From: an uncultured delta proteobacterium
Lineage (GTDB): Bacteria; Desulfobacterota; Syntrophobacteria; Syntrophobacterales; Syntrophobacteraceae
Assembly (NCBI GenBank): GCA_963808625.1
Contig: CAWEHK010000051.1
Span: forward strand, 64,001-128,000
Direction: 5' to 3'
DNA: 64,000 bases
The notes below the pieces were generated by a model that saw only the letters and a program-made list of their open reading frames with translations, ran no database searches and was not told where the DNA came from. Of the stretch, positions 27,459-62,313 are shown piece by piece (positions within the stretch are counted from its first letter, which is position 1; every line of letters begins with the position of its first letter). Both the position numbers and the translations under genes were made by a program.

Positions 27459-27461
27459 GTC

Positions 27462-28252: not shown

Positions 28253-28283
28253 AGGGAAGCTGAGCGAGTTCAGCTTCCCTTTT
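28253..28283 (+). terminator. Hairpin/terminator between fdnH and fdhE
   Basis: AGGGAAGCTGA-GCGAGT-TCAGCTTCCCT followed by TTT. Confidence 0.55.
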
Positions 28284-28305
28284 CCGGTATTAGGAAAGGA
28301 CTTAG

Positions 28306-41387: not shown

Positions 41388-41463
41388 TGGTGGCGGGGCC
41401 CAGAATTGAACTGGGGACACGAGGATTTTCAGTCCACTGCTCTACCGACTGAGCTACCCCGCC
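41388..41463 (-). tRNA. tRNA-Phe(GAA)
   Basis: GGCGGGGTAGCTCAGTCGGTAGAGCAGTGGACTGAAAATCCTCGTGTCCCCAGTTCAATTCTGGGCCCCGCCACCA. Confidence 0.97.
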
Positions 41464-41634: not shown

Positions 41635-44451
41635 ATGTCCCATGTGATTTTTCGCTTCGTCCTGCTGGCGCTGATCTCATTGAGCGGCTTGATCCAGACC
41701 GGCATCGCAAACGCCTCTAACGCTGCAGCCCAAGAGTCGCGTGTTCCTTCAGGAGATGAAGTTCCTCCCACGGTAACCAGGTTGTCTCCCCTTGCCATCG
41801 CTGCCATACCACCGGCAGGTCAGCATCTGGTGCGGCCCCGCGAAGGGGTCATCGAGCGCGGACTGCGCAAACAAGGGAAAATCGTCCCCGGTATGACTCC
41901 CGACCAAATCCGCTCCGCGGTGAAGGATTATTATGATCGTTTTTCCAAGGAGTCGAGCACCTGGGTCTCGCCGGAAATTCAGGAACGGGCTCTGCAACGG
42001 CAGGCGGAATTAGGGCATGCCCAACGGTCAGGAATGAGTCGCGAGGCCCTTCCTGCGTCCTTGGCGGTCCAGCCTGTTACTGCAGCCATCCTGGCACTCG
42101 CCGTGGATTTTGGCGGGACCGATAAGTTCAACTATTGGGCAACGTCAGGAAAAGTGTGCGCCAAGACGTCGGTGACTACCTCCGGTCCCTCACGGGGCCT
42201 GATTCCTCATCCCGGGCCACGCGATAACAACACCATCTGGTATGCTCCTGCGACTACTGCTAACGCCAAATTCTACGAAAAGCTCATCTTCGGTTATGAG
42301 GGTGTCGGCCGGGTGCGCCGCGATCTCCGCGACCCCGTCGATGGCAAACGCGGGATCAACCTCTCCGGCTATACCGTCCAGGACTATTACGACCATATGG
42401 CCGGCAAGGGGAATGTCCTTTTGACCGGAAGGGTGGAAGGCTGGGTCACCGTCGACCACAGCGAAGGCTACTATGGCGCGCCCTATTGCGAGCAAAAACA
42501 TGATGGCGGAGGGCTCGACCCCACCGGGCAGCTCGTCCCCACCGGGCAGCTCGTTGTGGACGCCCTGGACAAGTTCATGGCGGCCCACCTGGACTATTAC
42601 TTTGACACCAGCCCCACTGCTTTCTGGAAACAGTTCGACGCCAATCAGGATGGTGTTGTGGATTCTCTGTGGATCATTCACGCCGGCGTTGGTCAGGAAA
42701 GCGGAGGGGGAGCGCAAGGAGATTTTGCCATCTGGAGTCAGAGCTATGATTTGCGTAAATACACCGCTTATCCTCAGTGGAAGAATGGATACAAGGTCTA
42801 CGAGGGCGATCCCGATACCACCGCCGACGACATCGTTGTCGGTCCCTATACCATGCAGCCGGAAAACACCGATTTGGGAGCGCTGGTTGAAGAATTTGGC
42901 CATAACTTCTTCGGGCTGCCGGATCTTTACACGATCGATGTGGAGAACTCCGTCGGTTTCTGGAGTATCATGGCCGCCGGGACATACGGTGGTTGGCTGG
43001 GAGGCGCTACTCCCGTGGGCATGCCGCTCTGGTTTCGCATGATCGCTCAATGCGGCGACCAACCCTGTAACTGGCAGGAGCCCATGCTCTCGCTCCCATA
43101 CAATAGTTCCGCCAGAAAGGTTTCCATCGGGCAGCTTGAGAGCACTCCCGAAGGCGTCTACAAGGGTATCAAGATCGATCTCCCCGATGATGTGGATCCT
43201 GGGCTGGTGAAGAACCTGGCAGGGACTGGTAAGGGAGCTCACAGTGGCTCAGGCCGGAACAACATCGATATTACCCTCGACCGAAAAATCTGTATCTCCA
43301 AGAAAGCCGGCGCCCGCCTATCCTTTGATGCTTTCTGGGATCTCGAAGAGGATCGTGACTACGGGTATGTGATGGTGCATGACGGCACGGACTGGATATT
43401 CCTCGATGACAATGACACTGTCATGCGAAAGACCAACCCGTACGGGAACAATCTTGCTCAGGGACTAACCGGTTCCGGCAACCAGAAACTGCGCTTCAAC
43501 CTCGCCGCCTACCGAGGCAAGACCATCACGCTCCGTCTGCGATACAAAACCGATGCCTCCAAGACCGGACCCGGATGGTGGGTGGATAACCTCAGATTGG
43601 ATGGCAAATCCCTTGATCAGTTTGAAGAGGCCGTGCCACCTTCCGCCTTTTCCGGGTGGCTTAATTCCACCCCGGGCTGGCGCGTCGTTCCCCAGTACCA
43701 GTCCTATGCCAATTACTATTTGATCGAGTGGCGGACGAACACCCGCTATGATCGTATGGTGAAAACGGCCTATGTCAAGAATATCGACGACGGGTACGAA
43801 TGGCAGGTCGAGCGCATACCCTACAATATTCCCGGGGCGGTCCTCTATTACGCCAATATGCGTTATTGCGTCTCCGATTATCGCGGGACATCCTATCTGG
43901 AGAGCAACCTGTCTGACGCTCCCAGCATCGGCCCCAAGCACCCCTTGCTGGTTGTAGACATGAATTATGGACCTCTTCGACGCGACGACAACGGATCTGT
44001 TTTCGACGCCCGTATCGCCAGCTACGATGCCGCGCTGACGCTTCAGCCCACAAAGGCCTTCACCATTACCCAGATCGACCTGGGAGAAAGTATACTCGAA
44101 GGTCCGTGGCATTTCCCATCGAAGCCCGCGATCAGGAAATTCGACGATGCCAAAGGCTATTATGCCGGTCTTTATGCCGGAACGCCATGCAGCGAGTCTT
44201 ACTGTCTTGCCAATGAAGGCGGCAGTGCCGTGATTCCGGCATTGGGCAAATACACTACCAGGATCACCCACTACGATGGCACTCCTTTTCCCGAGTTGTA
44301 TGGCAAAACCGTCGAGTTGAATGGGACAAAATACCCAGGACTTAAATTGGGCAGCGGTAACCCTGGGGATAGCAAGCTCCAGTGCGGCGTGACGATCAAA
44401 CTTCTCAGTTCCGACGGCCCTACGGCAAAACTCAGCATCAACAGCCAGTAG
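41635..44451 (+). CDS. Secreted M6 family (immune inhibitor A-like) metalloprotease
   Basis: Signal peptide; DNNTIW, IIHAGVGQE.GGG, YTMQPE, EEFGHNFFGLPDLY, WSIMAAG, DYGYV and YYLIEWR motifs. Confidence 0.88.
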   Translation: MSHVIFRFVLLALISLSGLIQTGIANASNAAAQESRVPSGDEVPPTVTRLSPLAIAAIPPAGQHLVRPREGVIERGLRKQGKIVPGMTPDQIRSAVKDYYDRFSKESSTWVSPEIQERALQRQAELGHAQRSGMSREALPASLAVQPVTAAILALAVDFGGTDKFNYWATSGKVCAKTSVTTSGPSRGLIPHPGPRDNNTIWYAPATTANAKFYEKLIFGYEGVGRVRRDLRDPVDGKRGINLSGYTVQDYYDHMAGKGNVLLTGRVEGWVTVDHSEGYYGAPYCEQKHDGGGLDPTGQLVPTGQLVVDALDKFMAAHLDYYFDTSPTAFWKQFDANQDGVVDSLWIIHAGVGQESGGGAQGDFAIWSQSYDLRKYTAYPQWKNGYKVYEGDPDTTADDIVVGPYTMQPENTDLGALVEEFGHNFFGLPDLYTIDVENSVGFWSIMAAGTYGGWLGGATPVGMPLWFRMIAQCGDQPCNWQEPMLSLPYNSSARKVSIGQLESTPEGVYKGIKIDLPDDVDPGLVKNLAGTGKGAHSGSGRNNIDITLDRKICISKKAGARLSFDAFWDLEEDRDYGYVMVHDGTDWIFLDDNDTVMRKTNPYGNNLAQGLTGSGNQKLRFNLAAYRGKTITLRLRYKTDASKTGPGWWVDNLRLDGKSLDQFEEAVPPSAFSGWLNSTPGWRVVPQYQSYANYYLIEWRTNTRYDRMVKTAYVKNIDDGYEWQVERIPYNIPGAVLYYANMRYCVSDYRGTSYLESNLSDAPSIGPKHPLLVVDMNYGPLRRDDNGSVFDARIASYDAALTLQPTKAFTITQIDLGESILEGPWHFPSKPAIRKFDDAKGYYAGLYAGTPCSESYCLANEGGSAVIPALGKYTTRITHYDGTPFPELYGKTVELNGTKYPGLKLGSGNPGDSKLQCGVTIKLLSSDGPTAKLSINSQ

Positions 44452-44516
44452 AGCTCATCGCCACACCTTCGAGAAATGCGAGGCTCTCCACCCTGCTCCC
44501 GTCGAACATGCGCCTT

Positions 44517-44779
44517 AGTGCAGCTCAGCAAAATAAAGTGTCCATTATCCTGGATCGTCTATTCCGGCAATCTCCTAGCCGGAATCCACAAGAGCTTCCT
44601 GGATACCGGCTAAAAACATCCCGGTATGACGAAGGGAAATCCGGACACTCAATTCTGCGACGCAGTACTTAGAGCAGCTCAGCACCAATGAGTGCCCGAA
44701 TTCCAGTCGTCATGGCCACAAAAGCGGGCTTTCCCAGGCTCTCCTGCTAAATGGACGCTTTATTTTGCCGTCAAGTACT
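44517..44779. mobile_element. MITE-like non-autonomous element with terminal inverted repeats
   Basis: Left end AGTGCAGCTCAGCAAAATAAAGTGTCCATT matches the reverse complement of the right end (AGTACTTGACGGCAAAATAAAGCGTCCATT); internal REP-like hairpins; no transposase. Confidence 0.5.
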
Positions 44780-44898
44780 CAGACTAACAAGGCAAAGATC
44801 GTTAGAAGGTAAAATCCGAAATTCGAATAGCGAAATCCAAGCGGGGATGTTCAGCGATCGCTTGTGGGTCCCGACCGACGCAAAGGGTGAAGCCGCAC

Positions 44899-44938
44899 AA
44901 AAAAGGGGGGAGCCGGAATGGCTCCCCCCTCATTTTTT
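44899..44938. terminator. Bidirectional intrinsic terminator
   Basis: AAAAAA-GGGGGGAGCC-GGAAT-GGCTCCCCCC-TCATTTTTT between convergent genes. Confidence 0.8.
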
Positions 44939-44992
44939 GATCATGCTCCTCTCGGAAGGTTGCAGGCCCACCGAGAAAAATTCAGCGCAATC

Positions 44993-46096
44993 TTATCGTT
45001 TACCTCTTTCTTCATTCGGAAACCCGGTATCCCACTTGATGTATACGGGCCCTTTGACGTACTTGCCGGCAGTGCTCGCATGGGTGCCACCCTTATCCTG
45101 GTAAGTTATCCCATCAAGGGTGATCTTCGTATCGAGCAGGCCGAGCAACGGGCTTTCTTTACTGCCCGGGCAGTAGTTGTTGCTCGCCAGACCCTGCACC
45201 CGCATCCGCGCGGCACTGGTATGCAACCGGTTAATGTTGAAAGGTTTGATCTTGCCGGTGTCCTGAGGAATCCTGAAGGAATCCAGGGAAGCTTCGATGA
45301 AGCAGCTAAAGCACTGGTGGAGCCCGGTGAACTTGATTTCATTGTAGTTCCAGATGGTAAACGTCGCCTTGGTTTTCGTGGAACCAGCTCCATCCTGCTT
45401 CAGGTCCTGAATGCAGGGGATAAGGGTCAGATCACTCTGACTAGTGGCGCTCTCTGCCGGAAAGTCGATCACCAGGTAACTGGGGCAGGCGTCATAACCG
45501 ACCGCATCTTGATAGCCGCCATTCAGCAAGAGAGTTCCCCCCGTGCCGACCGGATTGCCGCGCGGCACATTGGCGGCGAAACGATACGCATTGTATTCCC
45601 AGGCGCTGCCGTTGGCAAAGTCAACGATAATGGCCTCACCCTTGAGAGAGTTCCAGGAAATCTGGTTCTGGGCCTCGGCATCGACCGCCCAGCACTTCAG
45701 GATCCCCTCATTACCCTGTTCAAAAGGCGCTATCGGTGGGCTTTTCGCGTAACTCACATCCCACAGGTGCTCTCCCGTACTAGCTTTGAAAACGGCTGGC
45801 TGGCCGCTCGTCAGCCTAAACTGGAAGTCGGTGTTGACGCAGCCATTTCTTGTAGTACCGGTCACAGGATCCGGATTCAGGTCCTTGTATTCCCAGTAGC
45901 ATTTTACATTTACGGCCGAACTATACGAATTGTAGATGGCAATGTAAGTGTCCTGGGTACCCGTCGTGATGATTTTGGGCCAGATCAGCAAGCTTCCCTG
46001 TTTGGTGGTATCCGTAACCGTCTGGGCAAGGCACCATGAACTCAATACCGCAATCGAAAAAGCCATGACCAAAGTCACGAGCGTGCACTTTTTCAT
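44993..46096 (-). CDS. Secreted Cys-rich hypothetical protein, paralog A
   Basis: Signal peptide; DTTKQGSLLIWPKI, VKCYW, LKCWAV, YDACP and DLTLIPCIQDL motifs shared with three other genes in the locus. Confidence 0.85.
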   Translation of the reverse strand: MKKCTLVTLVMAFSIAVLSSWCLAQTVTDTTKQGSLLIWPKIITTGTQDTYIAIYNSYSSAVNVKCYWEYKDLNPDPVTGTTRNGCVNTDFQFRLTSGQPAVFKASTGEHLWDVSYAKSPPIAPFEQGNEGILKCWAVDAEAQNQISWNSLKGEAIIVDFANGSAWEYNAYRFAANVPRGNPVGTGGTLLLNGGYQDAVGYDACPSYLVIDFPAESATSQSDLTLIPCIQDLKQDGAGSTKTKATFTIWNYNEIKFTGLHQCFSCFIEASLDSFRIPQDTGKIKPFNINRLHTSAARMRVQGLASNNYCPGSKESPLLGLLDTKITLDGITYQDKGGTHASTAGKYVKGPVYIKWDTGFPNEERGKR

Positions 46097-46168
46097 ACTC
46101 TTACCTCCTTATCATGTTGTCGCAATGCCAAATGGTAGCGATCACTTCGGCATCAATAGACACCTCGC

Positions 46169-47309
46169 CTAATTCACAGATACCGTAATGGCGGGGACAC
46201 CCTTACAAGCGTTTCCGTTTGTCGTCCACTCACCAATGCCAGTCGGGGTTACCGCTGTTATCGGTCCCAAGAAGCCGTTGAATCTCTTAACGATAACCCC
46301 AACCGCAGGATATGCGATGTAACCTGCCGGCAGGAGGCATTCCGTGCCGCCTGCGTAGGGACAGGTCGATGGCACAAACGGCGTTGCCGTAAACGCCCCG
46401 GCAGAGGTGGATTGGACACTCTTAAAGTAGGGAGCGGCGGCAAGGGAATCTGCGAAGAAGCAGCTCAGACAAAGAGCGCTGCTGCCGCGGCCAACATCTT
46501 GCTCGTTTTCATTTCGACTTGGGGCATCGAACTTGAGAACGGTCGGACCGCCATCCTGCGTGAAGTCCTGTTTGGTGGGAGCGATCGCCACATAATTGTC
46601 CACACTGCCGGTATAGGTCTGGTCTGTAGGGTTCGGCGTCTGCCTGAGATAATCAAAGATGAGAGCGGCCGGGGCTGAATCATAGTTGCCGGCATCGCCG
46701 CTCAACTGGAGCACTCCCGGGGTCGTCCCAACCTGGGTGAGCGCGGGTGCGTTAGCCGCAAAACGCCACGCACTGTAGGTAGCAACGCCGACTCCAAAGG
46801 GTGGCAGGGGCGTTCCTGGCGGTGCGACATAATATTGCCATTGCCGCAACAGGGTCGCCTCACCGGTAAGCTGGTTATATGACATTCTGGGTAGTTGCAC
46901 CACTGTCTTCCTGACTGGTTACCCAACACTTGGCTTCGGCCACATTGCCGAAGTCTATTCCGGAATCCAGAACATTGTCGCCATCCAGATCTGTCCCGTC
47001 ACTGGCCTTGAAGGTTATCGGCTGGTTGGGAGTGAGGATAAAACATTGCTCAACCCGGTCGCATGCATCTTTGAGCACAAAAACACAGCATACATTAACC
47101 GAATAATAATTGTCATTGCCGATGGTGATCAGGGTTTCCCACGATTCCGTCCCAAAGTTAGGGTAAACTGTAGTATCGGTCCTGATCAAGGGAAATATCA
47201 GCAGGCTACCCTTCTTTGACGTATTCGCGACGGTTCCCGCAAGGCAAGGTCCACCGACTGTCACAAGCAGAAAAGCTATGAGCAAACTCACGAGCATGTA
47301 TTTCTTCAT
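46169..47309 (-). CDS. Secreted Cys-rich hypothetical protein, paralog B (divergent); frameshift near 46900
   Basis: Signal peptide; NTSKKGSLLIFPLI, LTPNQP.FKASDG, AKCWV, YSAWRFAAN, KQDF, NENE. Confidence 0.8.
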
Positions 47310-48261
47310 ACTCCTTCCTCCTTTGAACTTGTTCAGTGATAATTGCATCAGAGGTTAACCCCTCTATGAAAAGGTTTCCACATCAGAAAACTTATGCCGC
47401 GAACAACCACCCCCCTTCCGATCTGTCAATTCAACGCCATCCTTGCTGAATTCCCAGGAGCACCCCTCTGAATCCGCCCCATCCTCCCCTGGCCTGGCAA
47501 TGAACCCAACCTGTGCTCAGCTCCAGAAACCACAACAAAGCAACAACTAATGTCCTCGGCATCCCGACAAAAACCCAAAGCCCCCTCTCGGCCTGTCCGG
47601 AGCAGATCCCCGCACAGGACACAAGATTGGCTCGGGATACCGATAGAACTACGACTAACGATTGTCCGTACTTGCCTGAGCTACTTCACTAATTGCGCCA
47701 TCTTTCACAGAAGCTCCCCGTATGTCAAGCAAAATCTGCATGCGACCTTACAGGACCGGGTTGCAGGTTGAACATCGCTCCCCTGACAGCAGCCATGGAA
47801 CGCACCGATAACGGTATGCAAAGGAGAGCGCAACCACGGGGACGGCACCAAACGTTATTCCGACCTGGCGGCCATGACTTCACTCGACCCCATGATCAAC
47901 GCTGAAAAAGGCGATATTTTTATCCTGTGCTGTGACCCTTGAGCCTACAGCATTGTATATAAAGCCAACCCGCTCCCACGTCGCCCACACGCGATGCGGA
48001 GCCCCACAGTCGGTTACAAACTCCGCTGGCGGCGCGATTTGATGGGGGTCATACCACTTCTGACCCGCTGGGAGATTATCATTTAGGGGCTTGCTACAAT
48101 TCTTTGTAAAGTTTCCTTTTATCATGATCAATTGTATAGTACCATTCTCCAGTACGATTAAAGTGCTCAACGGTGATAGCAATCCATCTTCCGATTCGTC
48201 TCCAGCGCGATGTGGATTGCTTTATGAGGCAGGTTGGACAAGAGACAGGGGGAACACCGCA

Positions 48262-51200
48262 ATGCGTTGGAATTTCAGTCGTCTGTTTCTGCTTTTCTCT
48301 TTCGTCACCATGTTCGGATTGGTCGGGCGAGCCCATGCTGTTATCGGTCTCGTGGATACTCCGGGCTATGCGCGTTGGGTCATGGTTTCGGGACCCTACG
48401 CCTATGTGGCGGATGACTACAGCGGTCTGCAGGTCATTGATGTCAGCAATCCGAAGAAACCAACGATCACCGGTTCGGTGGACACCCCGGGCAATGCGAA
48501 AAAGGTTTTTGTTGCCGGCTCTTCCGCTTACGTGGCCGATTACTGGGACGGCTTCCACATCGTGGACATCAGCAACCCTGCATCCCCTGCCCTGGTCGCT
48601 TCTCTCTCCTTGCCGGACGCCGCCGAAGGGGTCTTTGTGTCCGGTTCCTATGCTTACGTCGCCGATGGCACCTACGGCCTCAAGGTTATTGACGTCAGCA
48701 ACTCCCAGCGCCCCCACTGTCGTCGGTAGCGCGAACACTTCCGGCTATGCTCTGGATGTCAAGGTGTCGGGGTCCTATGCCTATGTGGCAGACGGACCCG
48801 GCGGTCTTCAGGTTATCGATATTTCGAAACGCGCTCAGCCCAAGATTGTGGGTGCCGCAGCCACGCCCGGCGATGCTAAGGGAGTAAGCGTAGCCTGGCC
48901 TTACGCCTATATCGCCGACGATGCTCAAGGCATTCAGGTCATCGATATTACGGAAGCCAGCAACCCAAAGATTGTCGGCTCCCTCCTCACCTCAGGCACG
49001 TGTCAGGCGGTATTTCTGGTCTATCCCCTGCTCTTTGTGGCCGCCGATGTGGATGGGCTGAGGGTGGTTGACGTCAGCAATCCAAAAGCCCCGGTCCTGC
49101 TGGGCACGGAATTTACCTCGGGTTACGCCTTAGGCGTTTATGTTACCGAGAGCTTGGCCTACATGGCAGACTACGACATTGGTCTCGAACTTATCGACGT
49201 CAGGAAATACTTTAGCCACATTGTCGCCACCGTCGATACCCCGGGCAATGCTTTGGATGTGAAAGTATCCGGTTCGTACGCTTATGTGGCCGATGACGCC
49301 GGAGGTCTCCAGGTGATCGATGTGGGAAAGCCTGCCGCTCCGACCATTGTTGGCTCCCTCGCGACAACGGGAAATGCGCAGGGAATCCATGTGTCCGGGT
49401 CTTATGCCTATGTCGCTGAGGACCTTGCCGGTCTTCAGGTGATCAACATCGATACCCCCCAAAGCCCGTTCGCCGTGGGTTCGATCACGCTACCCGGACA
49501 GGCCAGGGGGGTCTTCGTCTCGGGCTCCTGCGCCTATGTCGCGGCAGGGTCGGACGGTGGCCTCCAGGTGATCGACGTCGGAGATCCTGAAAATCCCGTT
49601 GTGATCGGGGCCGTCGCCACGCCCGGTTCCGCGGAAAGCGTTCGTGTGGTCGGTTCTCAGGCGTTTGTAGCCGATGGCTCGGCCGGTGGTCTGCAGGTAA
49701 TTGACGTGAATAACCCGCAAAGCCCAACCATCATCGGTTCTCTGAGCACCTGGGGCACTTGTTATGAGCTTGATGTGTCCGGCACTCTGGCTTATGTGGC
49801 TGACGGGCTTAACGGCCTGACCGTTGTCGATCTCGGGGACCTCAACAACCCGATCCCGATCGGCGGCTATGAGACCGACAGCAGCGCCAGTGGAATCCGT
49901 GTCGCGGGCCTCTATGCTTTCCTGGCCACCACCACGGACGGTCTGAGCATTTTCGACATCAGCGAGCCCGCTGAACCTTTCCCAATCGTTACTGTCAACA
50001 CTCCCGGTACGGCCTACAAGGTGGAGCTGTCCGGATCGTACGGCTTCATTGCGGATGGTGTTAAAGGCCTCCAGGTCATCGCGCTGTCGAATTTTCCGTG
50101 TGACCAGCAGCCCCCTGAAATTCCATCGAGCATTTCCTATCCTGCCAGCGATGGCGACGGGATCTTCACAGTAAGCTGGCCGTCCGCACTCCGGGCCGAA
50201 ACCTATAACGTCCAGCGCGCCAATAATTCTCTTTTTACAGGCGCCATCTCCGTCTACGACGGACCCGCCACTCTTTTTCAGCAATCCAACCTATTTACCG
50301 GGACCTTTTACTATCGCGTGAGAGCCCTGAATGATTGCGGCGCGAGCGGCTGGAAAACCGGCGGCGCTATCAGCGTCACGTCCTTTCCACCCAGACCGAA
50401 CAGTATCAGCTACGCAGCCAGCAGTTGCGGAGGGAGTCTGGCGATCACCTGGACATCCTCGGTTGGGGCAACCGCCTATTTAGTGCAGCGGGCCTCCAAC
50501 ATATCGTTTACCGACGCCATCGATCGCTATGCCGGTCCCAGCACCTCCTTCACCGATTCGTCCCTGACTTACGGCACCTACTATTATCGCGTCAGGGCAA
50601 GCAATGGCTACGGCACAAGTCCCTGGAAAACAGGAGGCGCCACGACGGTGCCGCCTCCCCCCGCCGTTCCGGCGAGCATCACCTACCCCGCCAAGACCTG
50701 TAGCGGTAACCTCACGGTAACGTGGGCACTTGCGAGCGGGGCAACCGGTTACACCCTCCAGCGCGCAACCAAGGTCGACTTCAGCGATGCGACCCAAGTC
50801 TACCTCGGAGCGTCCAACTCTTACACGGAGCCCGGTCTTTCTCCCGGCACTTACTATTACCGGGTACAGGCCAACAATAGTTGCGGCAGCAGTACCTGGA
50901 AGAGCGGCTCGGCCAGCGTGGTCCCTCCCGCTCCCCCGGCCCCGGCCAGCATCTCCTACCCGGCATCAAGCTGCGGCGGCAACTTTACGGTCAGTTGGGC
51001 AGCGGTCACCGATGCGGTCTCCTATACCCTGCAGCGCGATACTTCCGCTGCGTTCACAAGCCCCGTTGAGAATACGACGAGCTCACTTTCCTACAGCCAG
51101 GGGGCACTTTCCGCAGGGAGTTATTTTTTCCGGGTGCGTGCGAATACCGCCTGCGGCAGCGGAGCATGGCAAACCGGCCCTGCTAGTGCGGTCCTGGCGG

Positions 51201-54200
51201 CACCCCCGGCCCCGGATGGCATCACCTATCCCGGCAGCAGCTGCAACGGAAACTTTACCGTAACCTGGCCGGGTGTGGCCGAAGCAACTGCTTACGTGCT
51301 GCAGCGGGCAACCAATGCCTCCTTTACCGACGCCGCCCAGATTTACAGCGGCGCCGCGACGTCTTACTCCCAGGGCGCCCTCGATCCGGGCGTCTATTAT
51401 TATCGGGTTCAAGGAAGCAACACCTGCGGCTCCGGCACTTGGAAGGCCGGCGCCGCGGTTACCGTGACCACCACTCCCCCGACTCCGGGAACCCTCACCT
51501 ACCCCGCCAAGACCTGTAGCGGCAACCTCACGGTAGCGTGGACTCTTGCGAGCGGGGCAACCGGTTACACCCTCCAGCGTGCAACCACTGATGCCTTCAG
51601 CGATGCGACCCAAGTTTATCTCGGAGCGTCCAACTCTTACACCGAGCCCAGTCTTGCTCCCGGCACCTACTATTACCGGGTGCAGGCAAACAACGGCTGC
51701 GGCAGCAGTGCCTGGAAAAACGGCGTGGCCACCGTGGTCACTCCTGCCCCCCCGGCCCCGGGCAGCATCTCCTACCCGGCATCAAGCTGCGGCGGCAACT
51801 TTACGGTGAGTTGGGCGGCGGTCACCGATGCGGTCTCCTATACCTTGCAGCGCGATACTTCCGCTGCGTTCTCGAGCCCGGTCGAGAATACGACGACCTC
51901 AACTTCCTTCAACCAGGGGGCTCTTTCTGCGGGTAGTTATTTTTTCCGGGTACGAGCGAATACCGTCTGCGGCAGCGGAGCATGGCAAACCGGCCCTGCC
52001 GTTGCGGTCCTTGCGGCACCTCCTGCCCCGGCCGGCATCACTTATCCCGGCAGCAGCTGCGACGGAAACTTTACCGTAACCTGGCAGTCTGTGGCCGAAG
52101 CAACTTCTTACGTGCTGCAAAGGGCAACCAATGCCGACGTTTACCGACGCCGCCCGGTCTATACCGGCACCGCGACGTCCTACTTATCAGGCCGCCCTCG
52201 ATCCGGCCGTCTATTATTACCGGGTTCGAGGAAGCAACACCTGTGGCACCGGCAGCTGGAAGGCTGGCGCCGCGGTTACCGTGACCACCAACCCTCCGAC
52301 TCCGGGAAGCTCCCACCTACCCTTCGGACAACTGTGGCGGAAGTTACACGGTTAGCTGGTCCTCGGCTTCCGGGGCAACCGGCTACACCCTGCAGCGGGC
52401 AAAGAATGCCTCGTTCACCGATCCCATTACCGTTTATAGTGGTTCCAATCTCTCTTATACGGAATCGAGTGTTGCCACAGGAATTTACTATTACCGGCTT
52501 CAGGCCAGTAATCCGTGCGGCAGCAGCGCTTGGAAAAGCGGCCCGGCCATCACGGTAGTAGCTGCTACTCCCCCGCAGCCCGCCGGCATCGACTATCCGG
52601 CAAGCAATTGTGGTGGGACCTTTACCGTCAGTTGGCCGGCCGCAAGCGGCGCCACCAGTTACAACCTCCAACGGGCCACCAACGCTTCCTTCACTTCTCC
52701 CATTTCGGTATATACCGGCGCGACAAATTCCTTCAATCAGACCGGCCTGGCCAGCGGCACCTATTACTATCGCGTCCAGGCCTCCAATAGTTGCGGCGCC
52801 GGTGACTGGCAAACAGGCTCCGCCATCATCGTTTCCGGTGCGCCTTCCGCTCCGGCCATACCTCTCCTATCCGGTGAGCGTTTGCGGGAGTAGCCTTAGC
52901 GTCAGTTGGGCGGCAGTTGCCGGCGCTTCAAGCTATACCCTGCAGCGGGACACCGACGCCCTCTTCACTCACCCGACTCTGGTTTATGAAGGCTCCTTGA
53001 CTTCCACCACCGACACCCCGGGTGCCGGCACCTTCTATTACCGGGTGAGAGCAAACGGCGCCTGCGGCGCGAGCAATTGGACGGTCGGCGTCGGCACCGC
53101 CGTGACGCCGGTGGTGGGAACCCCGGAGACAATCAGTTATCCTTCCACCAGTTGTACCGGGAATTTCACCGTGAGCTGGTCCGCCGTGAACGGCACCGCC
53201 TATTACGCACTCGAAAGGTCTGCCAACGCATCGTTTTCACCTTCCACACAGCTCGCGACGGGACCCCAAACCTCTTACAATCAGGCAGGCCTAGCCGCCG
53301 GGACCTATTACTATCGGGTGCGGGCTTACAATTGTGGCGCCGGTGGATGGAAGGCAGGTGGCCCCATTACCGTGGGGGCATCCCAGCCTCCTGCCGCTCC
53401 CACCACGATATCCTACCCGGCAAGCAGCGCTACGGGGAGTTTTACCGTGACTTGGTCGGCCGTCAGTGAGGCTGCCGGTTACACGCTCGAGCGGGACACC
53501 AGTGATTTGTTTCCCAAGCCGGTTCAGGTTTATAGCGGAACGGCAACGTTTCCTATGACCAGCCTAAGTTGGCGGCCGGGGAAGTACTACTACCGCGTGC
53601 GGGCCAATAGCGACTGCGGCAGCAGTGATTGGCTCTCCGGCAAAAAGGTGGTGGTCGCCAGCAACCAGCCTCCGGACCTGTCCGGTCCGCCCATCGGGAC
53701 CGCGACGGGAAAAACGGGTATTTCCTATAAATTCACCGGACAGGCAACCGATCCCGAAGGCAATCGCGATCAGATACCGCTTTGATTGGGGAGATGGCAG
53801 CCGTGACCTCCTGGTCGTCATTCGGCTTTCCGCGGTTACAAGTGGCACAAATGGCTTGTACCGGGTGCTTATTGTGTCAAAGTCCAGGCCAAGGACGGCA
53901 ACGGGGCGCTCAGCGATTGGTCTGACTGCGCCACGCTCAAGGTGACGAGCCGCCCGCCCGCTGCAGCCTGCTCCTCCGACCGGTCCGACCACCGGGGTCA
54001 AGAATACCTCCTACACCTTTACCGGTACCAGGCAGACGCGGACCCCGACGGCGACCCGGTCCAGTACCGCTTCTCATGGGGCGACGGGACAACCAACTCA
54101 TCCTGGTCCTCGTCGCCGTCTCGGGCCCACAAGTGGGCCAAGGCGAACTCCTACTGCGTGAAAGTACAGGCACGGGATGATAAGGGCGTGACCTCCAAGT

Positions 54201-54235
54201 GGTCCGCGTGCGCAAACATTGAGATTGGTAATTGA
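48262..54235 (+). CDS. Giant secreted surface protein (~2000 aa): 14 LVIVD repeats, 13 FnIII-like repeats, 2 PKD-like domains; several frameshifts
   Basis: Signal peptide at 48262; repeats of V.VSG.YAYVAD...GLQVID; ~91-aa repeats I.YP...C.G.F.V.W...Y.LQR...GTYYYRV.A.N.CG.S.W; C-terminal DP.G..YRF.WGDG domains. Confidence 0.88.
50679..52308 (+). repeat. Internal ~816-bp tandem duplication (3 FnIII modules x2)
   Basis: ACCTACCCCGCCAAGACCTGTAGCGG at 50681 and 51497, with high DNA similarity continuing along the unit. Confidence 0.85.
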
Positions 54236-54280
54236 CGACGCCCTTGCGGCAAAAACTGTGAGGGCCCTCTGATTTTTTTC

Positions 54281-54309
54281 TTGACAATTGCTTTCGTCTG
54301 CCCTAGTTA
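54281..54309 (+). promoter_or_regulatory. Putative sigma70 promoter for paralog C operon
   Basis: TTGACA-17 nt-TAGTTA. Confidence 0.4.
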
Positions 54310-54672
54310 GTTAACAAACGCCGGTGGGGAATTGCATCGTGTCCTCGTTAATGAAATTAGAGCAAGTTGAGTGGGGTCAAGACTTATACGAAGCTTGTGC
54401 CGGGTTTTTTCCGAGTATACATTAGTGGATCTTTTTGGCTAACAATCTAAATATAAGGGGATATTTCGTAGCGCAGCAACAGGCAGTAACCACGGTTAAG
54501 GTCCAGCAGGCATATTGCTTTTTTTAATTGATGATTGAGATTAGGTAGAGAGGAGGTGAGATCCACTGCGCCCTGAGCAGGTGGAGTTTTGGTTTGACTG
54601 ACAGGTGCTTGAAGACAGCCATTGTTGTTGTGGTAAGTTATCTTGGAATTTTTAGGCAGGAGGAAAGAGAGA

Positions 54673-55825
54673 ATGTTTAAAAAAGCAGTGTTTTTCTCAT
54701 TGGCAGTTGTGTGGTTGCTTGTGGGGGTCACCACCATGGCCTCTGCTGCACAGAACGTTGGGAACACTTCTCAGAAAGGCAGTGTTCTGATTTTCCCGAA
54801 GATTGACGTTACGCCGGGGAGGGACACGATCATTCAGCATCAGCAATGATTACCCCCGTGGTGTCATGATCAAATGCTACTGGGTGAACTATGACCAGGA
54901 AATTCAGGATTTCATGTTCCTCGTTACGATCACTCAGCCGGTGTGGTTCCGGGCGTCCGACGGATTGGGCACGGGCAGCTACAACAACGACCCGACCACT
55001 CAGCCCGTCACCGTTCCGCCCTTTTTCCCTGAGAGCGTTGGCGAATTGAAGTGCTGGGCGGTCAATTTCGAAGGGACCCAGCAAATTAGCTGGAATCATC
55101 TGTCAGGCAACGCCATGGTTCTCGATTACATCAATCAAACAGCGTATGAATACAATTCGGTTAATTTCACGGCTCGCGGAGTTGCCCTGGCCGGCACGGT
55201 TCGTCCCGCAGGCACGATCAATCTGAGCGGCGCGGCCAACCAGTACGATGCGTGCCCGCAGTATCTGGTGTTCAATTTCTTCACTTATGATCCAACGGTG
55301 GGCAGCACCAGGGTCGTGGACATCGACGGTCAAGGCGCTGCGGTGAGGTTTAACAAGACCGACCTTACGCTGGTTCCCTGCAAGCAGGACCTGCGCCAGG
55401 ATCGCGTTCCCACTTGCACGAAGGCCAAGTTTGACATCTGGAACGAAAATGAAACCAAGTACACCGGCGCCTACCAGTGCCTGAAGTGCTGGTTTGAAGG
55501 CTACCTGAACGACATCGGCACGGCCTTGGGGCATCCCGGCGGGTTTGGTGGTGAAAAGTTCACCTATCCGGGTCTGCACACCACCATGGGACGCGCGCGG
55601 GTGACCGGCGTTGCCAGTACGGTGTGTAACGGTAAGTACCCGTGTTCCACCCAGGTCAATTCGCCATTGCTTGGCATTACCTCGACCCAGGTTGAATTCC
55701 TCACTCCGGGCCAAAAGATGGAGCTGATTGCGGCCGAAGCTGTTGGCGCGGGGACGTACACGGCTGACCCCGTCAGTATCCAGTGGGATATTCAGCGGGA
55801 GCCGGAAGAGGTTTCCGGAAGGTAG
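54673..55825 (+). CDS. Secreted Cys-rich hypothetical protein, paralog C; frameshift near 54835
   Basis: Signal peptide; NTSQKGSVLIFPKI, IKCYWVN, QPVWFRASDG, GELKCWAV, YDACPQYL, DLTLVPCKQDLRQD. Confidence 0.85.
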
Positions 55826-55862
55826 AATTCGTTCTTCTTGAGCTCTAATCAATGGTAATGCT

Positions 55863-55899
55863 AGGGGGGCAAGGAGGTGTCCTTGCTCCCCTTTCTCTT
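55863..55899 (+). terminator. Hairpin/terminator after paralog C
   Basis: AGGGGGGCAAGGA...TCCTTGCTCCCCT followed by TTCTCTT. Confidence 0.6.
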
Positions 55900-56228
55900 G
55901 TGGCGACTCTGCCGAGTCCGGAAGAGTGAGACAGCAAGCGGGAAAAGACGAAAGTGTTTCAACCAAACTCTACTCCTGCGCGTGTTGCTTCGTGTCCTTG
56001 ATTACGGCACCAGCCCCTGACCGTTATGCAGGCAGTCGCTGTGCAGTACACAAACGAATTCTTCCATACGAGGTTTTGCTTTATGTTGAGGAAGATTTTT
56101 TCACTGGTTAGCAGCAACCAGCCCGATCAGCAAATCGCTTACCGATCACCGGCCCGGCGGAAGAATCCGGCGCCTGTTCGTGCCCCCGCAGAGGGCCTCG
56201 ACTGCAACTGCATGGTGCCTCGCTGACG

Positions 56229-56986
56229 ATGCTCCTCATTTTGGGCCTGTTCCTTCCTGCATGCTTGCAGGCAGCCCAGGACGAAGTGAAAGTCTTGCGT
56301 GAGCGCGCAACCACCCTCTGGGAAGCCCGCGTGAAGGGTGACTGGGCGACGATTTTTGACTATCTTATCCGCCGAGGAAAAGAAAGGGAGGGACGAAGGA
56401 ACAGTATGTCCAATTCACCAAGGAAAAGGGGCCGTTCCGTTACCTTTCATACAAGCTTGGGGACGTTGATGTCGATGGTGATGTTGGTTGGGTAAAGACA
56501 ACCTATGATATGGAACCGATGCAGTTTCCGGGGCTGCCCCCGCATCATATGGACACGGTACAGTTGTGGGAAAAACGTGACGGCAACTGGTACCCGATTC
56601 CGAAGGACCGACAAGAAGATGTGCCGCGTCTTCCGCCTCGCCTGCGACCGCTCAAGGAAGAGAACGCCGTGATGGCACGCGCGAACGAGTTCTGGCAGGC
56701 CCGTGAGAAAGGCGACTATGGGACGGTCTATCAGTTCTGCGCTCCCGCCTTCCGCGAGAAGGTTGCAAAGGAAGAGTTTCTGAGCAAGAAGGCCCTTAAT
56801 ATTTACGTTGGCCACCAAATCCTCTTTGCAGAGGTGGCGGGCGACCGTGCCAAGGTCAAGGCAACCATTGCATACCGACCGAATGATCCGAGTTTGACCA
56901 AGATCGATCCCGCCGAGGAAACCGTTATGCAGGAATGGATCAAGGTGAAGGACCAGTGGTACCTCGACGTTAAGGAACCGGGGTAA
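56229..56986 (+). CDS. Exported hypothetical protein with two tandem NTF2-like repeats; frameshifts near 56370-56400
   Basis: Two repeats: RA..(L/F)W.AR.KGD(W/Y).T.(F/Y) ... W.K....WY. Confidence 0.7.
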
Positions 56987-57100
56987 TCACAAACGGAGGC
57001 AGCTACATGTCCGGAACCGGCGATGCGTGCAATTTACCTTGAATGGCATGACGTCAGTCTCGGGTTCAAGATTCACTAATTTTCGCAGCGGAGAGATCGC

Positions 57101-58524
57101 ATGGAGCGTTTTGTTAGATTTGTGTTTCACGACCTATTGATCCTTGCAACAGTAGTTTGCCTGGCATCGTGCGCGGGCGTCCAGACCCAACCCTCTAAGC
57201 CCGCCCAGGAACAACCGGCCCCAAAATTTAGACTTTCAGCCTCCGGTTTGGCCGCAACGGGTATGTGGAAATGCACACCGTTGGTCACCGACGTAAATCG
57301 CGACGGACACCTGGATATCATCGCCATTGCGCGCCTCGGTGATGGCGCACACGTCTCGCTTGGAGATGGGAAGGGCAACTGGACGGACTCCTCAGAAGGC
57401 CTCAAGATGAAGGGCGGATCCTGTGGAGGCGGGGTGGCTGTTGGTGACATTAACCGAGACGGTCACCTCGACCTGGTTGTTGCCGACCATTGCAGCGGCG
57501 TATATGTCTATCTGTCCGACGGGGCTGGACACTGGAAGGCAGTCACTGAGGGTCTCTATCCACCTGCTGTGAATGCCAAGGTCCAGGGCACAGGACGAGG
57601 AGCTGAAACAGATTTTCATTGGTTCTGAGGACATCGCTCTTGGCGACATCAATGGGGATGGCTTCCTCGATATCGTGGCTGCGGCTTCGGATCAGGGTGG
57701 TTTTTCGGTCTATCTTGGTAATGGCACGGGTAAGAATTGGAAACTCTGCCAAGGCTAACGGCCTGCCTGATTTGGAAAATCCCGAACCCGAAGACGAGGA
57801 CAATGCCGGGTGGGCCAACCGGGTGATACTCCGTGATGTGAACGGAGACGGCCAGCTTGATGTCGTGGCATCATACTACAAGGGACCCAGGGTGTGGCTT
57901 GGTGACGGTAAAGGCCACTTCAAGAGCGTTTCTCAGGGACTTCCTTCGCCGTAATTGGCGGCCTGTACCGCGGGCTGGAGCTCGCAGACATCAATAAAGA
58001 CGGGCTTTTGGACATCGTTGCGGCCAACGATGTGAATGGTCCGGAAGGTTTTCTACAACAGCCTGGTGGCTCATGGAATCCGACCGGTGACCTCATGCCG
58101 TCCATGCAGAACGGGGCCGTTGGTATTGCTGTGGCTGACTTCGATAACGATGGTAACCTTGATCTTGTGGTCGCGCGGCCGCAAGGTAAAGGAGATGGGG
58201 AACAATTACGGCCTTTACCTCCTCCAAGGAGACGGCAGGGGCGGTTTCAAAGAACTGGTGGCAACGAACCTCCCGGCGAAGGGTCTCTCAGTGACCTGGG
58301 GAGTAGCCGTGGGCGATGTCAATGAAGATGGTCTCATTGACTTTGTCGCCGCCACCGGGGGCGCCGTGGCCGGATCAGCCGGTGCCAAACTTCCTCCCCA
58401 AGCCAAAACACGCCCTGATACAAAAGCCAAGAAACCGGTGGAGAAAGAGAAGCCGGCCAGCGATTCGATCGCGGAACTGCCCCTGCCGCGCATGCAGGCA
58501 TGGGTTAACGAAGGCGTTCATTGA
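57101..58524 (+). CDS. FG-GAP/VCBS repeat beta-propeller lipoprotein; several frameshifts
   Basis: LASC lipobox; about 7 D.N.DG.LD(I/L/V) repeats with GDG.G motifs. Confidence 0.85.
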
Positions 58525-58571
58525 GGTCTGGCTCACGTCGCCACTAACTGGAACTGAGGTATCAAGGAACC

Positions 58572-60205
58572 ATGTTCCAACAACATAATTGGCGAAAACT
58601 CTTAATCATCTCACTCAGCCTGATGGGGGTGCTGGCGGCCACTCTTGCCGGGCTCTCCCATCGGCTGGAGTGGCTCGCCTCCCTGTGCACCGGCTTTGGT
58701 GATGGCTGCCGCGAAACGGTCGACTTTCAATTGTTGGGCATGCCTGTCTGGCTCTGGGGGGTGATCTATTACCTCCTTGTTTCCTTGCTCCTCTTCCGCG
58801 CGTATGCTTTCTCTTCTGGCTCATTGCCGCCGGCTTCGGAGTGGAGCTTGGCCTCATGTGGACGATGTTTTCCATGAAGGCCATTTGCGTTTTCTGCCTG
58901 GCCAATTTTCTCCTGGTCACCGGCGATGATGCTTTGCATCCTTGAAAGAGCGCGCATCTGGCAGAGCCTTACCGTGACCTTTGCGCGCCCTGCTGTTTAC
59001 TGCGGTGATGGTCCCTTATGAGAACAGCAATCTCGTTGCCGCAAGAGAAAGGCAGAATCCCGTTGTTGCGGCAATCGTCGCCGGTCAGGAGATTTCCTAT
59101 GACGAACTCGTGCGCCCCGTGGCCTCGCGGATTTACGACCTGCAGCAACAGATCTATCACCTTGAACGAGACCTTTTGGACCAGTTGGTTGCGAAGATGG
59201 TTCTCGAGAAGGAAGCCGAACGACAAGGAAAACCGCTTCAGGAATTGATCAAAGGCTATATCGGTGCGCAAAATATAGCCTGTGGGAGACCAGGAGGTTG
59301 ACAATTACTATGCGGAAAATCGTGCTCGTTGGAACGAATGGAAAGGTTCCGAGCAAGAACTCTATGACCCAGATCCGAGCTTACCTTCAGCAGCAAAAGA
59401 TTCAACAGAGAGTGCTGGAGTATGCTAAGTCTTTGAATCCGAAGTATGGTGTGGTCATCAATCTTAAGGAGCCCCCGTCGCCAACCATCCAGGTCGCCAT
59501 TGGAAAGGACGATCCCGTGCTTGGTCCTGAAAATGCCCCTCTTACCATTGTCGAGTTCTCAGATTACCAGTGTCCGGCCTGCCGGAAAAACCATGAGGTG
59601 GTGCGCGAACTCAGGGGCCTCTACAAGGAGCGAATCCGATGGATTTTCAAAGACTTCCCCATGCCCGGCCACAAATGGGCCAAGGGTGCGGCCCTGGCTG
59701 CACGTTGCGCTGCTGAACAGGGTAAGTTCTGGCAATACCAGGACATGCTGTTCGCCAGTCAGGATGAACTTTCCCCGGACCGTTTGACTCAGTTCGCCAA
59801 GGAGCTCGGGCTGCCGTTGGAACCCTTCCACTGAATGCCTTGAAGCCAATAGATTTCAGAACAATGTTGAAAGAGAGCGTCGAGGAGGGGAAGAAATTTG
59901 GGCTCAATTCCACTCCGACTTTTGTCATCAACAATCGCCTCGTTTCCGGGGCGCCGCCGCTTGATCGTTTCAAAAAGATTATTGACGAGGAGCTTGAGAA
60001 GGCTCGAGAAAAGCAGCTAGGGAATGGAAGAGCCGAGCCTGCCTCATTGGCAAACCGTCCCGACAAGATCGAACGGCGGAAAAGACATTTTTTCGACTTT
60101 CCCATGGATATAATATTTTTCTTGACAGATGCTTTTCTTTCTTATAATTTTACTCACAGCAATGCTGGACTGGGCCAAAACCGAATGGAATCTTACTGGA
60201 ATTAA
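58572..60205 (+). CDS. VKOR + helical linker + DsbA/thioredoxin fusion; several frameshifts (true stop may be ~60020)
   Basis: VKOR loop cysteines (LCTGFGDGC), LLGMPV and ICVFC; then VEFSDYQCPAC, FKDFP and STPTFVIN. Confidence 0.82.
60122..60148 (+). promoter_or_regulatory. Consensus-box sigma70 promoter for paralog D
   Basis: TTGACA and TATAAT exact; spacer reads 15 nt across T-runs, possibly under-called. Confidence 0.55.
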
Positions 60206-60500
60206 TGAGATAAGATTTCACTTTAACCGTCCTCATCAGAGGGCGTAGCGTAGTGTCAAAAGATGGTTAAGATGTGTGCGGTTCTGAAGTTCGTGCTGCC
60301 GGTTTCTAAAGGGGTGCTGCAAGAGTGTTTGATGCTGGGGAGTTGGCGTCTGCATTGCGGAACTCGGAGAGATCCCCATCGAGAGGAGGTGAGACCCAGG
60401 GCCAAAGCAGATAAAAGCTTGGACTGAACTGTCTTTAAGTGTACTGATGTGAGATAGTTAATCAGTTACAGGACTTTTATGAAGCAGGAGGAAGGAAAGT

Positions 60501-61662
60501 ATGTTTAGGAAAACGATGGTTTTTTCTCTGGCAGTCGCGCTGGTGCTGATGGGGCTCTGCACGTATGGCCTCTGCGGCTCAGAATGTGACCAACACGTCT
60601 CAGAAAGGCAGTCTGCTGATCTTCCCCAAGATCGACACCTCTGCGATTGGACGAAAGCGGCTTTTATCGCGACACGATTGTGATGATCGGCAATGACTAT
60701 TTTACCGAAGTTTGGGTTAAGTGTTACTGGGTGAACGCCGAGCAGGAAATTCAGGATTTCATGTTCCGCCTGACACCCAACCAGCCGGTTTGGTTCAGGG
60801 CCTCCGATGGCGCGGGAACCGGTTATTACGATGATATTCAGGCCCCGTCACCGTGCCTCCGTTCTTTGACGGGTTATGGCGTCGTCGGTGAGCTCAAGTG
60901 CTGGGCGGTCGATGCCGTGGGCGAAAACCGAATTTCCTTCAACCACTGTATGGCAACGCCATCATTCTTGATCCCGTGCATGCCGCTGCCTTCGAGTATA
61001 ACGCATGGGCCTTTACCGCCCGCGGGGTAGCACTGAACGGCACCGTAGGCACGCGCGGGCACCCTCGTCCTTTCCGGCGCCGACCGCGCTTATGATGCCT
61101 GCCCGAGCTATCTTGTTTTCAACTTTTTCTCCAAGGGCGCCAGCCATCAATCTACCGGATAAGGGCGGCTTTGCAACGTTCGTCAATACCGATCTGACCC
61201 TCGTTCCCTGTATCCAGGACCTGCGCCAGGACCGTGTTCCCACCTGCACCAAGGCCAAGTTCGATATCTGGAACGAGAATGAGACCAAGTACACCGGCGC
61301 CTATCAGTGCCTCAAGTGCTGGTTCGAAGGCTACCTTGGCGATATCGGTAGCTACACCATTGGATACGGCGGCGAGAAGTTCTGGTACAAGAATCTTCAC
61401 ACCACCGCGGGCCGCTTCCGGGTCGAAGGCATACCTAGCTACGGTGTGCAAGTTCGGTGTAGCGGGTTACCCGTTCGCCAAATGTCCTGTGGGTGCCGGG
61501 GTTCGCAGTCCTCTGCTTGGTCTGATCAGCACGGAAATCAAGTTTACTTCCGATCCGTATGATGCGCTGGCCGGCACCACCCCGAACACCGCGGGAACGG
61601 GCATCGCCTCGACCATTCTGTGGGATTATCAGGACGGCACCTCCGGAGGCCCCGGCCAATAG
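60501..61662 (+). CDS. Secreted Cys-rich hypothetical protein, paralog D; multiple frameshifts
   Basis: Signal peptide; NTSQKGSLLIFPKI, VKCYWVN, LTPNQPVWFRASDG, GELKCWAV, YDACPSYL, QDLRQDRVPTCTKAKFDIWNENE. Confidence 0.85.
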
Positions 61663-61707
61663 TCAGGTTAGACATACCGGATTTGTCGATCCTGAAAACT
61701 GGATGTC

Positions 61708-61746
61708 AAGGGGAGAAAGGCTCAGGCCTTTCTCCCCTTTCTGTTT
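61708..61746 (+). terminator. Intrinsic terminator after paralog D
   Basis: AAGGGGAGAAAGGC-TCAG-GCCTTTCTCCCCTT followed by TCTGTTT. Confidence 0.8.
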
Positions 61747-61759
61747 CATGCCCGCTTAT

Positions 61760-62313
61760 CTTATCTCGTGCGCTCCTTCGGAGTCAGAAGTCACGATTCA
61801 AATAGTCCTTCCCGGTCGGGTGTTGTCATCCGCATCGAATCTTACATCGACCCGCTATTCCCGCGTTTCCTATGCGACCTGGTTGGTCATGGGGATTATC
61901 GAGAAGTCACTTCATGCCCTTGTCAGCCACCTTGATTTCATCGATCTCGGGCAAATCCTCCAGATCATCTTCCAACAGCTCGATGAACAGTCCATCTTGA
62001 GCTGAATTCTGCGCATCCCTCTCAAAATCCGACAAGGGCGTCACTTGGTCACTGACTTCACCCAGGATGGACAACTCTTGAAAGGTCCAGCCCTAAAGTC
62101 CTCGGCGAAATCGGCATCCTCGGCTTTCACCACCGGCTTCCTTTATTATTTCGCCCAGGCCCCCGTCCTTTAACAACCTTCCAACAGAAATGGGACCTCT
62201 GCCTTGGCCGCCGAGAAACCAAGCTGTTGCCTTATAGCCGTCAGATCCGCCCCACATTTCCGGCATTCAGACAGGTAATCAAAACTAACAAACCCGCATT
62301 TCTGGCACTTCAT
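61760..62313 (-). CDS. Hypothetical protein, N-terminal double zinc-ribbon and acidic tail; frameshifted, 3' end uncertain
   Basis: MKCQKCGFVSFDYLSECRKCGADL... after a GGAAGG RBS; acidic stretch (IELLEDDLEDLPEIDE) downstream; absent from the ORF track. Confidence 0.55.

Follow-up and report, generated by a model that had tools for sequence, protein, structure and literature searches.

A 64,000-nucleotide stretch of DNA from an uncultured member of the Syntrophobacteraceae (G000:C51:64001-128000, hereafter the window) carries four genes for secreted, cysteine-rich paralogs, A to D (Table 1), which are probably the tiles of a surface layer (S-layer) of the NpdA type, as a divergent branch that is shorter, richer in cysteine and multi-copy. 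The NpdA S-layer was proven by deletion and cryo-electron microscopy, with oligomers resistant to sodium dodecyl sulfate and nanopod tubes, and the lattice of Delftia acidovorans is tetragonal (PMC10765051; PMC3110197). A preliminary description of the window had proposed an S-layer or a polymeric fibre; it was the S-layer half that gained support, from remote homology to NpdA, a common top structural match and a common accessory gene. In the way it works the paralog family would resemble the S-layer system of NpdA, but it is not orthologous to NpdA, because full-length homology and linkage to a type II secretion cluster were both tested and neither was found.

Paralog and NpdA profiles, compared without signal peptides, aligned over strands 1-4 above all controls (28-87%). 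Adding the family of full-length NpdA homologs from Desulfobacterota (for whose profile the 45 of 60 matches with the trimming motif were used) gave a match of 69% over these strands, and the merged profile 87%. As a benchmark, a true NpdA ortholog family from the same phylum aligned over 338 columns at 99.5%; for the paralogs, homology over the whole mature chain was not found, the alignment being confined to strands 1-4, and domain 2 stayed at control level against NpdA or the bridge family. With signal peptides included, the profile match to NpdA came to 94%, a value discarded as too high. NpdA starts with a pattern like that of the paralogs, and a scan with a short motif gave 66 loci in taxa fitting the published NpdA range, one of which (L121) encoded a protein with a mature mass within 5 Da of published NpdA. 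Full-length NpdA homologs were also seen in Desulfobacterota (L161:8437-10830 of genome G147; P0305-P0364), in the order SurA-like, NTF2-like, npdA-like and beside glycosyltransferases; NpdA has been reported only from Beta- and Gammaproteobacteria.

The paralog model and the NpdA model had the same top structural match for the N-terminal domain, 1nc7 (105-106 of 116 residues aligned; an indirect comparison, through 1nc7). In paralog A, the 106 matched TM1070 residues lie inside positions 32-175 and domain 1 is a complete, eight-stranded TM1070-type sandwich of the ASRAH superfamily (TM1070 1NC7, ASRT 2II7, DUF5719; PMC2739507). The asparagine that is conserved in ASRAH proteins where strand 2 ends was present as N56, the last residue of strand 48-56, in at least 90% of 150 rows. 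The family differs from these relatives in having no lipobox, no amidase and no ASRT pocket signature: in place of SHEshChhN in a cytoplasmic solo domain, there were the consensus DTxIxIxN, a signal peptide and two domains. PF07100 and PF18986 did not match the family, and domain 2 compared with domain 1 at control level. An arrestin or capsid fold was rejected, Foldseek searches against PDB and BFVD having given only these, at TM 0.1-0.2. No TasA chain was among the 50 fold matches listed, an absence which does not exclude a TasA fold, and homodimer prediction for paralog A (score 0.00 in both runs) speaks neither for nor against assembly. A literature search, with subscription journals mostly outside its coverage, found no paper joining S-layers with ASRAH, DUF5719 or TM1070.

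The common accessory gene is the NTF2-like one. A hidden Markov model (HMM) of the family-linked NTF2 halves alone picked the gene directly upstream of npdA in 59 of the 66 loci, and the tandem NTF2-like protein of the window is homologous to this single-domain lipoprotein. In these 59 loci (among L081-L146, e.g. L121:3807-4223) the small lipoprotein gene lies between gspD and npdA; it had no Pfam match, and its product may be a pilotin or a factor in S-layer assembly. As neighbours of npdA, the main text of PMC10765051 mentions the gsp cluster alone, although Fig. S5 of its supplement may already draw the gene. A peptidyl-prolyl isomerase (PPIase)/SurA gene was 3' of npdA in the four loci read; beside the paralogs, the SurA-type gene took the form of a SurA_N domain fused to DsbA, without the rotamase domain of the npdA neighbour. 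No type II secretion cluster was found beside the paralog cassette. Elsewhere in the genome, a complete cluster (gspD to gspE) was located at G000:C24:29822-40258, with the sole secretin match in the genome and with gspG apart at C28:32510-32941.

NpdA and the paralogs thus have in common a Sec signal, a two-domain beta-rich model with TM1070 as top match, alignable strands 1-4, adjacent NTF2-like and SurA-type genes, and the lack of a Pfam family. They differ in size and cysteine content (370-390 aa with 6-10 Cys in the paralogs vs. ~470-600 aa with 2-5 Cys in NpdA), in number (up to ~12-20 copies plus passenger fusions vs. a single gene), in accessory genes (tandem NTF2, an added FG-GAP propeller and DsbA/VKOR, type II secretion unlinked vs. 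a single NTF2 with npdA) and in hosts (Desulfobacterota, Planctomycetota, Acidobacteriota, Nitrospirales and Methylocystis vs. Beta- and Gammaproteobacteria, with Delftia acidovorans and Paracidovorax citrulli, for NpdA). By language-model features, the nearest named cluster was Slr4 (PF19526; 0.77-0.80, below the tool's 0.9 mark). Slr4 of Pseudoalteromonas tunicata is secreted and beta-rich like the paralogs and forms a square lattice, but it is three-domain and linked to type II secretion, whereas the paralogs have no Pfam hit, and the likeness drawn here is one of language-model features (PMC7821379).

The preliminary description had named conserved linkage with the accessory genes as a test of its reading. 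Linkage was conserved for the NTF2-like, FG-GAP and SurA-DsbA genes, but not for the M6 protease and LVIVD/FnIII genes, which turned up only in genomes of the window's genus. The tandem NTF2-like gene (E below 1e-50) occurred in 16 of 96 genomes of the order, all within the 17 carriers of the family; a family gene was directly upstream on the same strand in 14 of the 16, and on the opposite strand within ~1.2 kb in 2. Downstream of the NTF2-like gene came FG-GAP in 15 of the 15 cassette loci examined and SurA-DsbA in 14. Among 101 genomes of a planctomycete class, that of G096, NTF2-like and family genes occurred in the identical 3, and in L164, L166, L233 and L264 a family gene adjoined NTF2 and FG-GAP; the exceptions to the conserved unit were G087 and G171. 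Synteny was counted per genome (G handle) only, because loci from separate tools overlap. NTF2-like and propeller genes numbered one each per genome, whatever the number of tiles, and each accessory gene was single-copy in G000. The FG-GAP gene matched its planctomycete orthologs at E below 1e-80.

More distant loci of similar layout were also recorded. Single-domain NTF2 genes elsewhere in the order flanked weakly related secreted proteins in 9 of 15 loci. Also in the order, L172, L173, L177, L178, L179 and L181 encode secreted proteins of 334-385 aa with a BNR propeller and a single NTF2 beside wzm/wzt, and are candidate coat loci; L175 and L176 have a 148-aa single-domain version adjoining NTF2 and a subtilase-like gene. 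At L080:1454-5567 (Competibacterales), which gave a distant NTF2 match, an NTF2 gene, a secreted 412-aa protein, FG-GAP and SurA/PPIase lie near glycosylation genes, with a close type in L183 of the window's order; this type is linked to the paralogs by context and not by sequence, because the profile match of 33-56% with signal peptides fell to 0.4% without them.

The four paralog genes predicted in the preliminary description were recovered: A is intact, and B, C and D read from ATG to stop across frameshifts traced via blastx frames. The seven shared motifs described for them were all present, in the same order, in each of the four, and were degenerate, as had been noted, in A (DTTKQGSLLIWP, NYNE) and B (CCVF, YDSAP, PTKQD). 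All four matched the family HMM (E 3e-26 to 1e-138 per piece), and their signal peptides were read by eye from the sequence. The genome (G000; 4.8 Mb, 85%-complete) has many single-base indels throughout its assembly, because of which most genes in the window are in pieces. For C and D, relatives' contigs differ at the breaks (one base fewer at 54836, 60562-60564 and 60649, one extra at 60945), which makes errors of assembly the most likely cause of these; the break in B was not among the rows of relatives' contigs shown.

Within the genus, the paralogs grouped by position in a tree built from 59 sequences and pieces: C (before NTF2-like), D (after DsbA) and the reverse A-B pair, which is kept within the genus and repeated on contig C21. 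The family HMM found ~11-12 genes at six places in G000: four in the window, two nearly identical ones in tandem on C8, the pair on C21, two on C23, of which one is partial, a single gene on C41 and, on C22, a fragment. Both genes of the C8 pair (G000:C8:193566-196125) are frameshifted at about the same spot near the 3' end, from recent duplication or an assembly artefact. An element, AGAGGAGGTGAGA, precedes C and D and was also found in L011 and L058; it is a Shine-Dalgarno-like run without an obvious start and could be an mRNA stabiliser. The codon index of the paralogs was unremarkable, with no bias signal.

Table 1. Position and content of features within the window.
Feature	Position	Strand	Description
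M6-family (InhA-like) predicted secreted protease	41635-44451	+	MAM + VEG domains; Pfam, NCBIfam TIGR03296
Terminator-like hairpin, 12-bp	44903-44931	.	between converging M6 and A; usable on both strands; pattern match only
Paralog A	44993-46096	-	intact (367 aa); signal peptide, then two beta-sandwiches, the first of ASRAH fold
Paralog B	46169-47309	-	~380 codons; most divergent; one frameshift near 46890
Giant exported LVIVD-propeller/FnIII protein	48262-54235	+	~1,990 codons over several frameshifts
AGAGGAGGTGAGA element	54549-54561	+	~110 nt upstream of C start codon
Paralog C	54673-55825	+	~384 codons; one frameshift near 54836; cassette position directly upstream of NTF2-like gene
Terminator-like hairpin, 13-bp	55863-55892	+	between C and accessory genes; pattern match only
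Tandem NTF2-like exported protein	56229-56986	+	~250 aa, one frameshift; core accessory gene
FG-GAP beta-propeller lipoprotein	57101-58524	+	lipobox LASC; frameshifted; core accessory gene
VKOR-like membrane + SurA_N-like + DsbA (CPAC) fusion	58572-60205	+	frameshifted; 3' end uncertain (60020-60205)
AGAGGAGGTGAGA element	60382-60394	+	~110 nt upstream of D start codon
Paralog D	60501-61662	+	~387 codons; at least four frameshifts; sister group of C in tree
Terminator-like hairpin, 14-bp	61708-61739	+	after D; pattern match only

The family could not be assigned to a named one, as the preliminary description had stated: six paralog pieces had no Pfam match, NCBIfam gave nothing meaningful among 91 family members, and a sequence search of the PDB gave no match. 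Word search returned 99 matches, and the family comprises 2,871 clusters at 50% identity (E up to 0.001). Named carriers included Syntrophobacteraceae, Phycisphaerae and other Planctomycetota, Acidobacteriota, Nitrospirales, Thermodesulfobacteriota, and Methylocystis sp. ATCC 49242 and WRRC1; of the 122 loci of a pattern search, 40 were true members, and names were shown for 79 loci. Carriers were scattered: in the order 17 of 96 genomes had the family, in the phylum 3 of 401 and in the planctomycete class 3 of 101, and one of the 3 phylum matches was weak and turned out to be an NpdA homolog. No family match was found on plasmids, nor did the Methylocystis protein match metagenome contigs. 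The same literature search found no paper on the family, which is not treated in the accessible parts of PMC7821379, PMC11094555, PMC12288469, PMC10787695, PMC6367495, PMC13274458 and bioRxiv 10.1101/2025.04.15.648961.

Stand-alone members mostly had 6-10 Cys, a median isoelectric point of 4.7, a C-terminal Arg or Lys (110 of 165) and, in 77, a W/Y/F-D/T motif 13 residues from the end. Among the 150 best matches, the unit also stood C-terminally behind IgGFc-binding, NIDO, HYR, SdrD or DUF7901 domains, and there were circular permutants (profile 77-350 followed by 27-77) and passengers inserted at profile position 77/78. The natural permutants and loop insertions P0187, P0188, P0206, P0231, P0204 and P0234 are all cut at this position. 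The module is thus both a carrier and a protein in its own right, as N-terminal, C-terminal and loop fusions exist among homologs. Arrays of six family genes were also seen next to an FG-GAP gene in marine Phycisphaerae (L218, L240).

An unlikely alternative to S-layer tiles is that the paralogs polymerise in one dimension or as tubes (fibre, sheath or nanopod-like structure), with passenger fusions as tips, NTF2 and propeller as base, and alternating major and minor subunits. Tandem arrays of divergent paralogs (2, 4, 6 and 3 genes in G171, L157-L160; five in a row in G099), C-terminal modules behind adhesin or enzyme domains, as in tip pilins, and collagen-like genes inside the cassette (L063, L066, L070) would suit it, as would a prepilin-peptidase gene, which lies 1.8 kb downstream both in the window and in its relatives of the genus, and NpdA itself makes tubes too (nanopods, PMC3110197). 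However, domain 1 is a complete sandwich on its own, with no missing strand to invite donor-strand exchange, and in fusions and circular permutants the first strand stays internal to the chain. The nine genes include no usher, sortase motif or class III signal, and the nearest proven relative forms sheets.

Somewhat less likely still, the paralogs may be soluble or loosely cell-bound sugar-binding modules, which, with two ASRAH-type domains, would dimerise into a closed pseudo-tetramer that binds lipopolysaccharide or capsule and tethers passengers to the surface without a lattice. ASRAH domains are predicted carbohydrate binders and come in twos or fours (PMC2739507), at least 14 of the 150 best matches had two family units and hence four sandwiches, and related loci adjoin glycosyltransferase and ABC export genes. 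Against this stand the missing His/Cys pocket of ASRT, the lack of a profile match between domain 2 and domain 1, and the accessory gene held in common with npdA, for which a simple lectin would have no need.

The TasA/CalY-SipW-InhA1 system of the Bacillus cereus group builds an extracellular matrix, and the analogy drawn to it in the preliminary description found no support: no signal peptidase was present among the nine genes (41635-61662), the host is diderm, the fold assignment is another, and the M6 gene, which lies near secreted beta-rich paralogs as in that system but in the window's genus only, has an altered motif and no conserved position. It is very improbable that all nine genes form one TasA/InhA-like matrix machine in which M6 would do the processing and the LVIVD/FnIII giant would be the adhesin at the tip. 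All nine products are indeed exported or membrane proteins (as had been claimed), and within the genus M6 adjoins the paralogs in 6 of 7 carriers. Outside the genus, however, none of the 9 cassette loci examined had M6 or LVIVD/FnIII, the first zinc His of M6 was Glu in 4 of 4 sequences read (EEFGH, not the HExxHxxGxxD of active M6 (InhA) proteases), and the genes appear to form at least four transcription units on both strands rather than one operon, because A and B are on the minus strand and the strongest terminator-like stems, the three longest in 19 kb, come after A, C and D.

The domain labels of M6 (Peptidase_M6, E 1e-30), LVIVD/FnIII (LVIVD and fn3) and FG-GAP (FG-GAP_3) were confirmed with Pfam. 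The M6 zinc motif was EEFGHNFFGLPD in the window and in 3 of the 5 homologous loci scanned, the other 2 having no motif match. LVIVD/FnIII was seen in 3 genomes, all of the window's genus, and was intact in L074 (1,986 aa). M6 and LVIVD/FnIII are probably local surface cargo and are not core processing or tip components, because they were seen only in this genus; in other genera, FnIII/Kelch giants flanked the cassette, and a collagen-like gene was placed within it. Such exported collagen-like proteins, of which some have CBM5/12 domains, are inserted behind the propeller gene in two phyla (L063, L065, L066, L070; L164:6799-8646). The NTF2-like label is provisional, drawn from a motif and weak matches (SnoaL_2 E 0.008; de novo NTF2 chains E 0.4-0.6). 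The VKOR-DsbA fusion of the preliminary description had a Thioredoxin_4/DSBA domain (Pfam) and a VKOR-like membrane domain, but proved three-part, with a SurA_N-like domain between; an intact ortholog has 480 aa. The loop Cys pair and CxxC expected of VKOR in a four-helix membrane domain were found (C39, C46, C106 and C109, invariant in 5 of 5 genus orthologs), and were absent from the ortholog of another genus (L066). Pfam VKOR (PF07884) scored 18.3 bits over the whole model in one of two orthologs scanned, below the cut-off of 27.5, and a PDB search gave only DsbB (E 2.6). The stem between C and the accessory genes is the layout expected if the structural gene were made in excess of its helpers.

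Near-identical RNA-library contigs from two studies lay on each of the four paralogs, and the FG-GAP gene had one as well. In three RNA runs the contig depths, when summed, were high for the paralogs A to D but 0-2 for the remaining genes; in one RNA run depth was solely in 9 of 30 bins, those holding paralogs, and a DNA run touched 30 of 30. These depths were not used to rank genes, because they are depths of contigs, the runs had been found with 54000-62000 and relatives' paralogs cross-map at 85%; contig depth cannot rank expression and missing RNA cover proves nothing. The runs contained only 5-13% of the words, for which reason no habitat is claimed. In two studies an RNA contig stops at 47674-47681, which hints weakly at a leader of 370 nt for B. 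An Rfam scan gave a tRNA as sole match and promoter matches were at chance level. The tRNA-Phe (41388-41463), immediately 5' of the M6 gene, borders the part of the locus in which gene content varies between genomes. Elsewhere in the window, a formate dehydrogenase operon (24371-29211) has its large subunit broken between 24886 and 25008, the place expected for a selenocysteine codon or a frameshift, followed by an Fe-S subunit and an FdhE-like gene.

For the S-layer reading, the following route may be proposed. The paralogs would be exported by Sec with signal cleavage, as read from sequence, and folded in the periplasm by the SurA_N-DsbA fusion, re-oxidised by its VKOR-like domain, setting 3-4 conserved disulfides, as domain content and conserved Cys suggest. 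By analogy with NpdA and Slr4, they would cross the outer membrane via the unlinked type II secretion system. The two-sandwich subunits may then self-assemble into a sheet, probably tetragonal, in which the ASRAH domain would be the four-fold contact, as in TM1070. The NTF2-like protein and the propeller, whose genes co-occur with the family, would act as dedicated assembly, pilot or anchoring factors. Since the module tolerates passengers at the N terminus, the C terminus and one loop, the sheet can be mosaic and, given the fusions found in homologs, may display enzymes and adhesins. These anaerobes thus probably build a protein coat from a set of interchangeable tiles, and in other species some of the tiles bear enzymes or adhesins. 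The coat may also have a part in syntrophic aggregation. More tentatively, and with less than even confidence, ASRAH-fold proteins could be an unrecognised cross-phylum S-layer superfamily that takes in NpdA, the paralog family, the types of L080 and L161 and perhaps Slr4 and has a universal NTF2-like assembly factor as its mark, with the window's branch as a programmable mosaic coat in which one accessory set assembles up to 12-20 tiles, many with enzyme, adhesin or collagen-like passengers (N-terminal, C-terminal or loop).

The search for S-layer genes is hampered by how little sequence they have in common, and to our knowledge the coat proteins of Desulfobacterota and planctomycetes are mostly unknown. 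The small NTF2-like gene, which marks npdA loci, provides a handle that flags candidate coat proteins in both groups. NpdA gains a fold, and an un-annotated family gains a probable function. Cultured aerobes are available for the family (Methylocystis sp. ATCC 49242) and for the accessory gene (Delftia). If passengers are displayed in the lattice, it would be a natural surface-display platform and a candidate route for syntrophs and Phycisphaerae to present adhesins and enzymes; a mosaic coat, if that reading is true, would give diderms another means of surface display besides sortases, cellulosomes and type IX tags.

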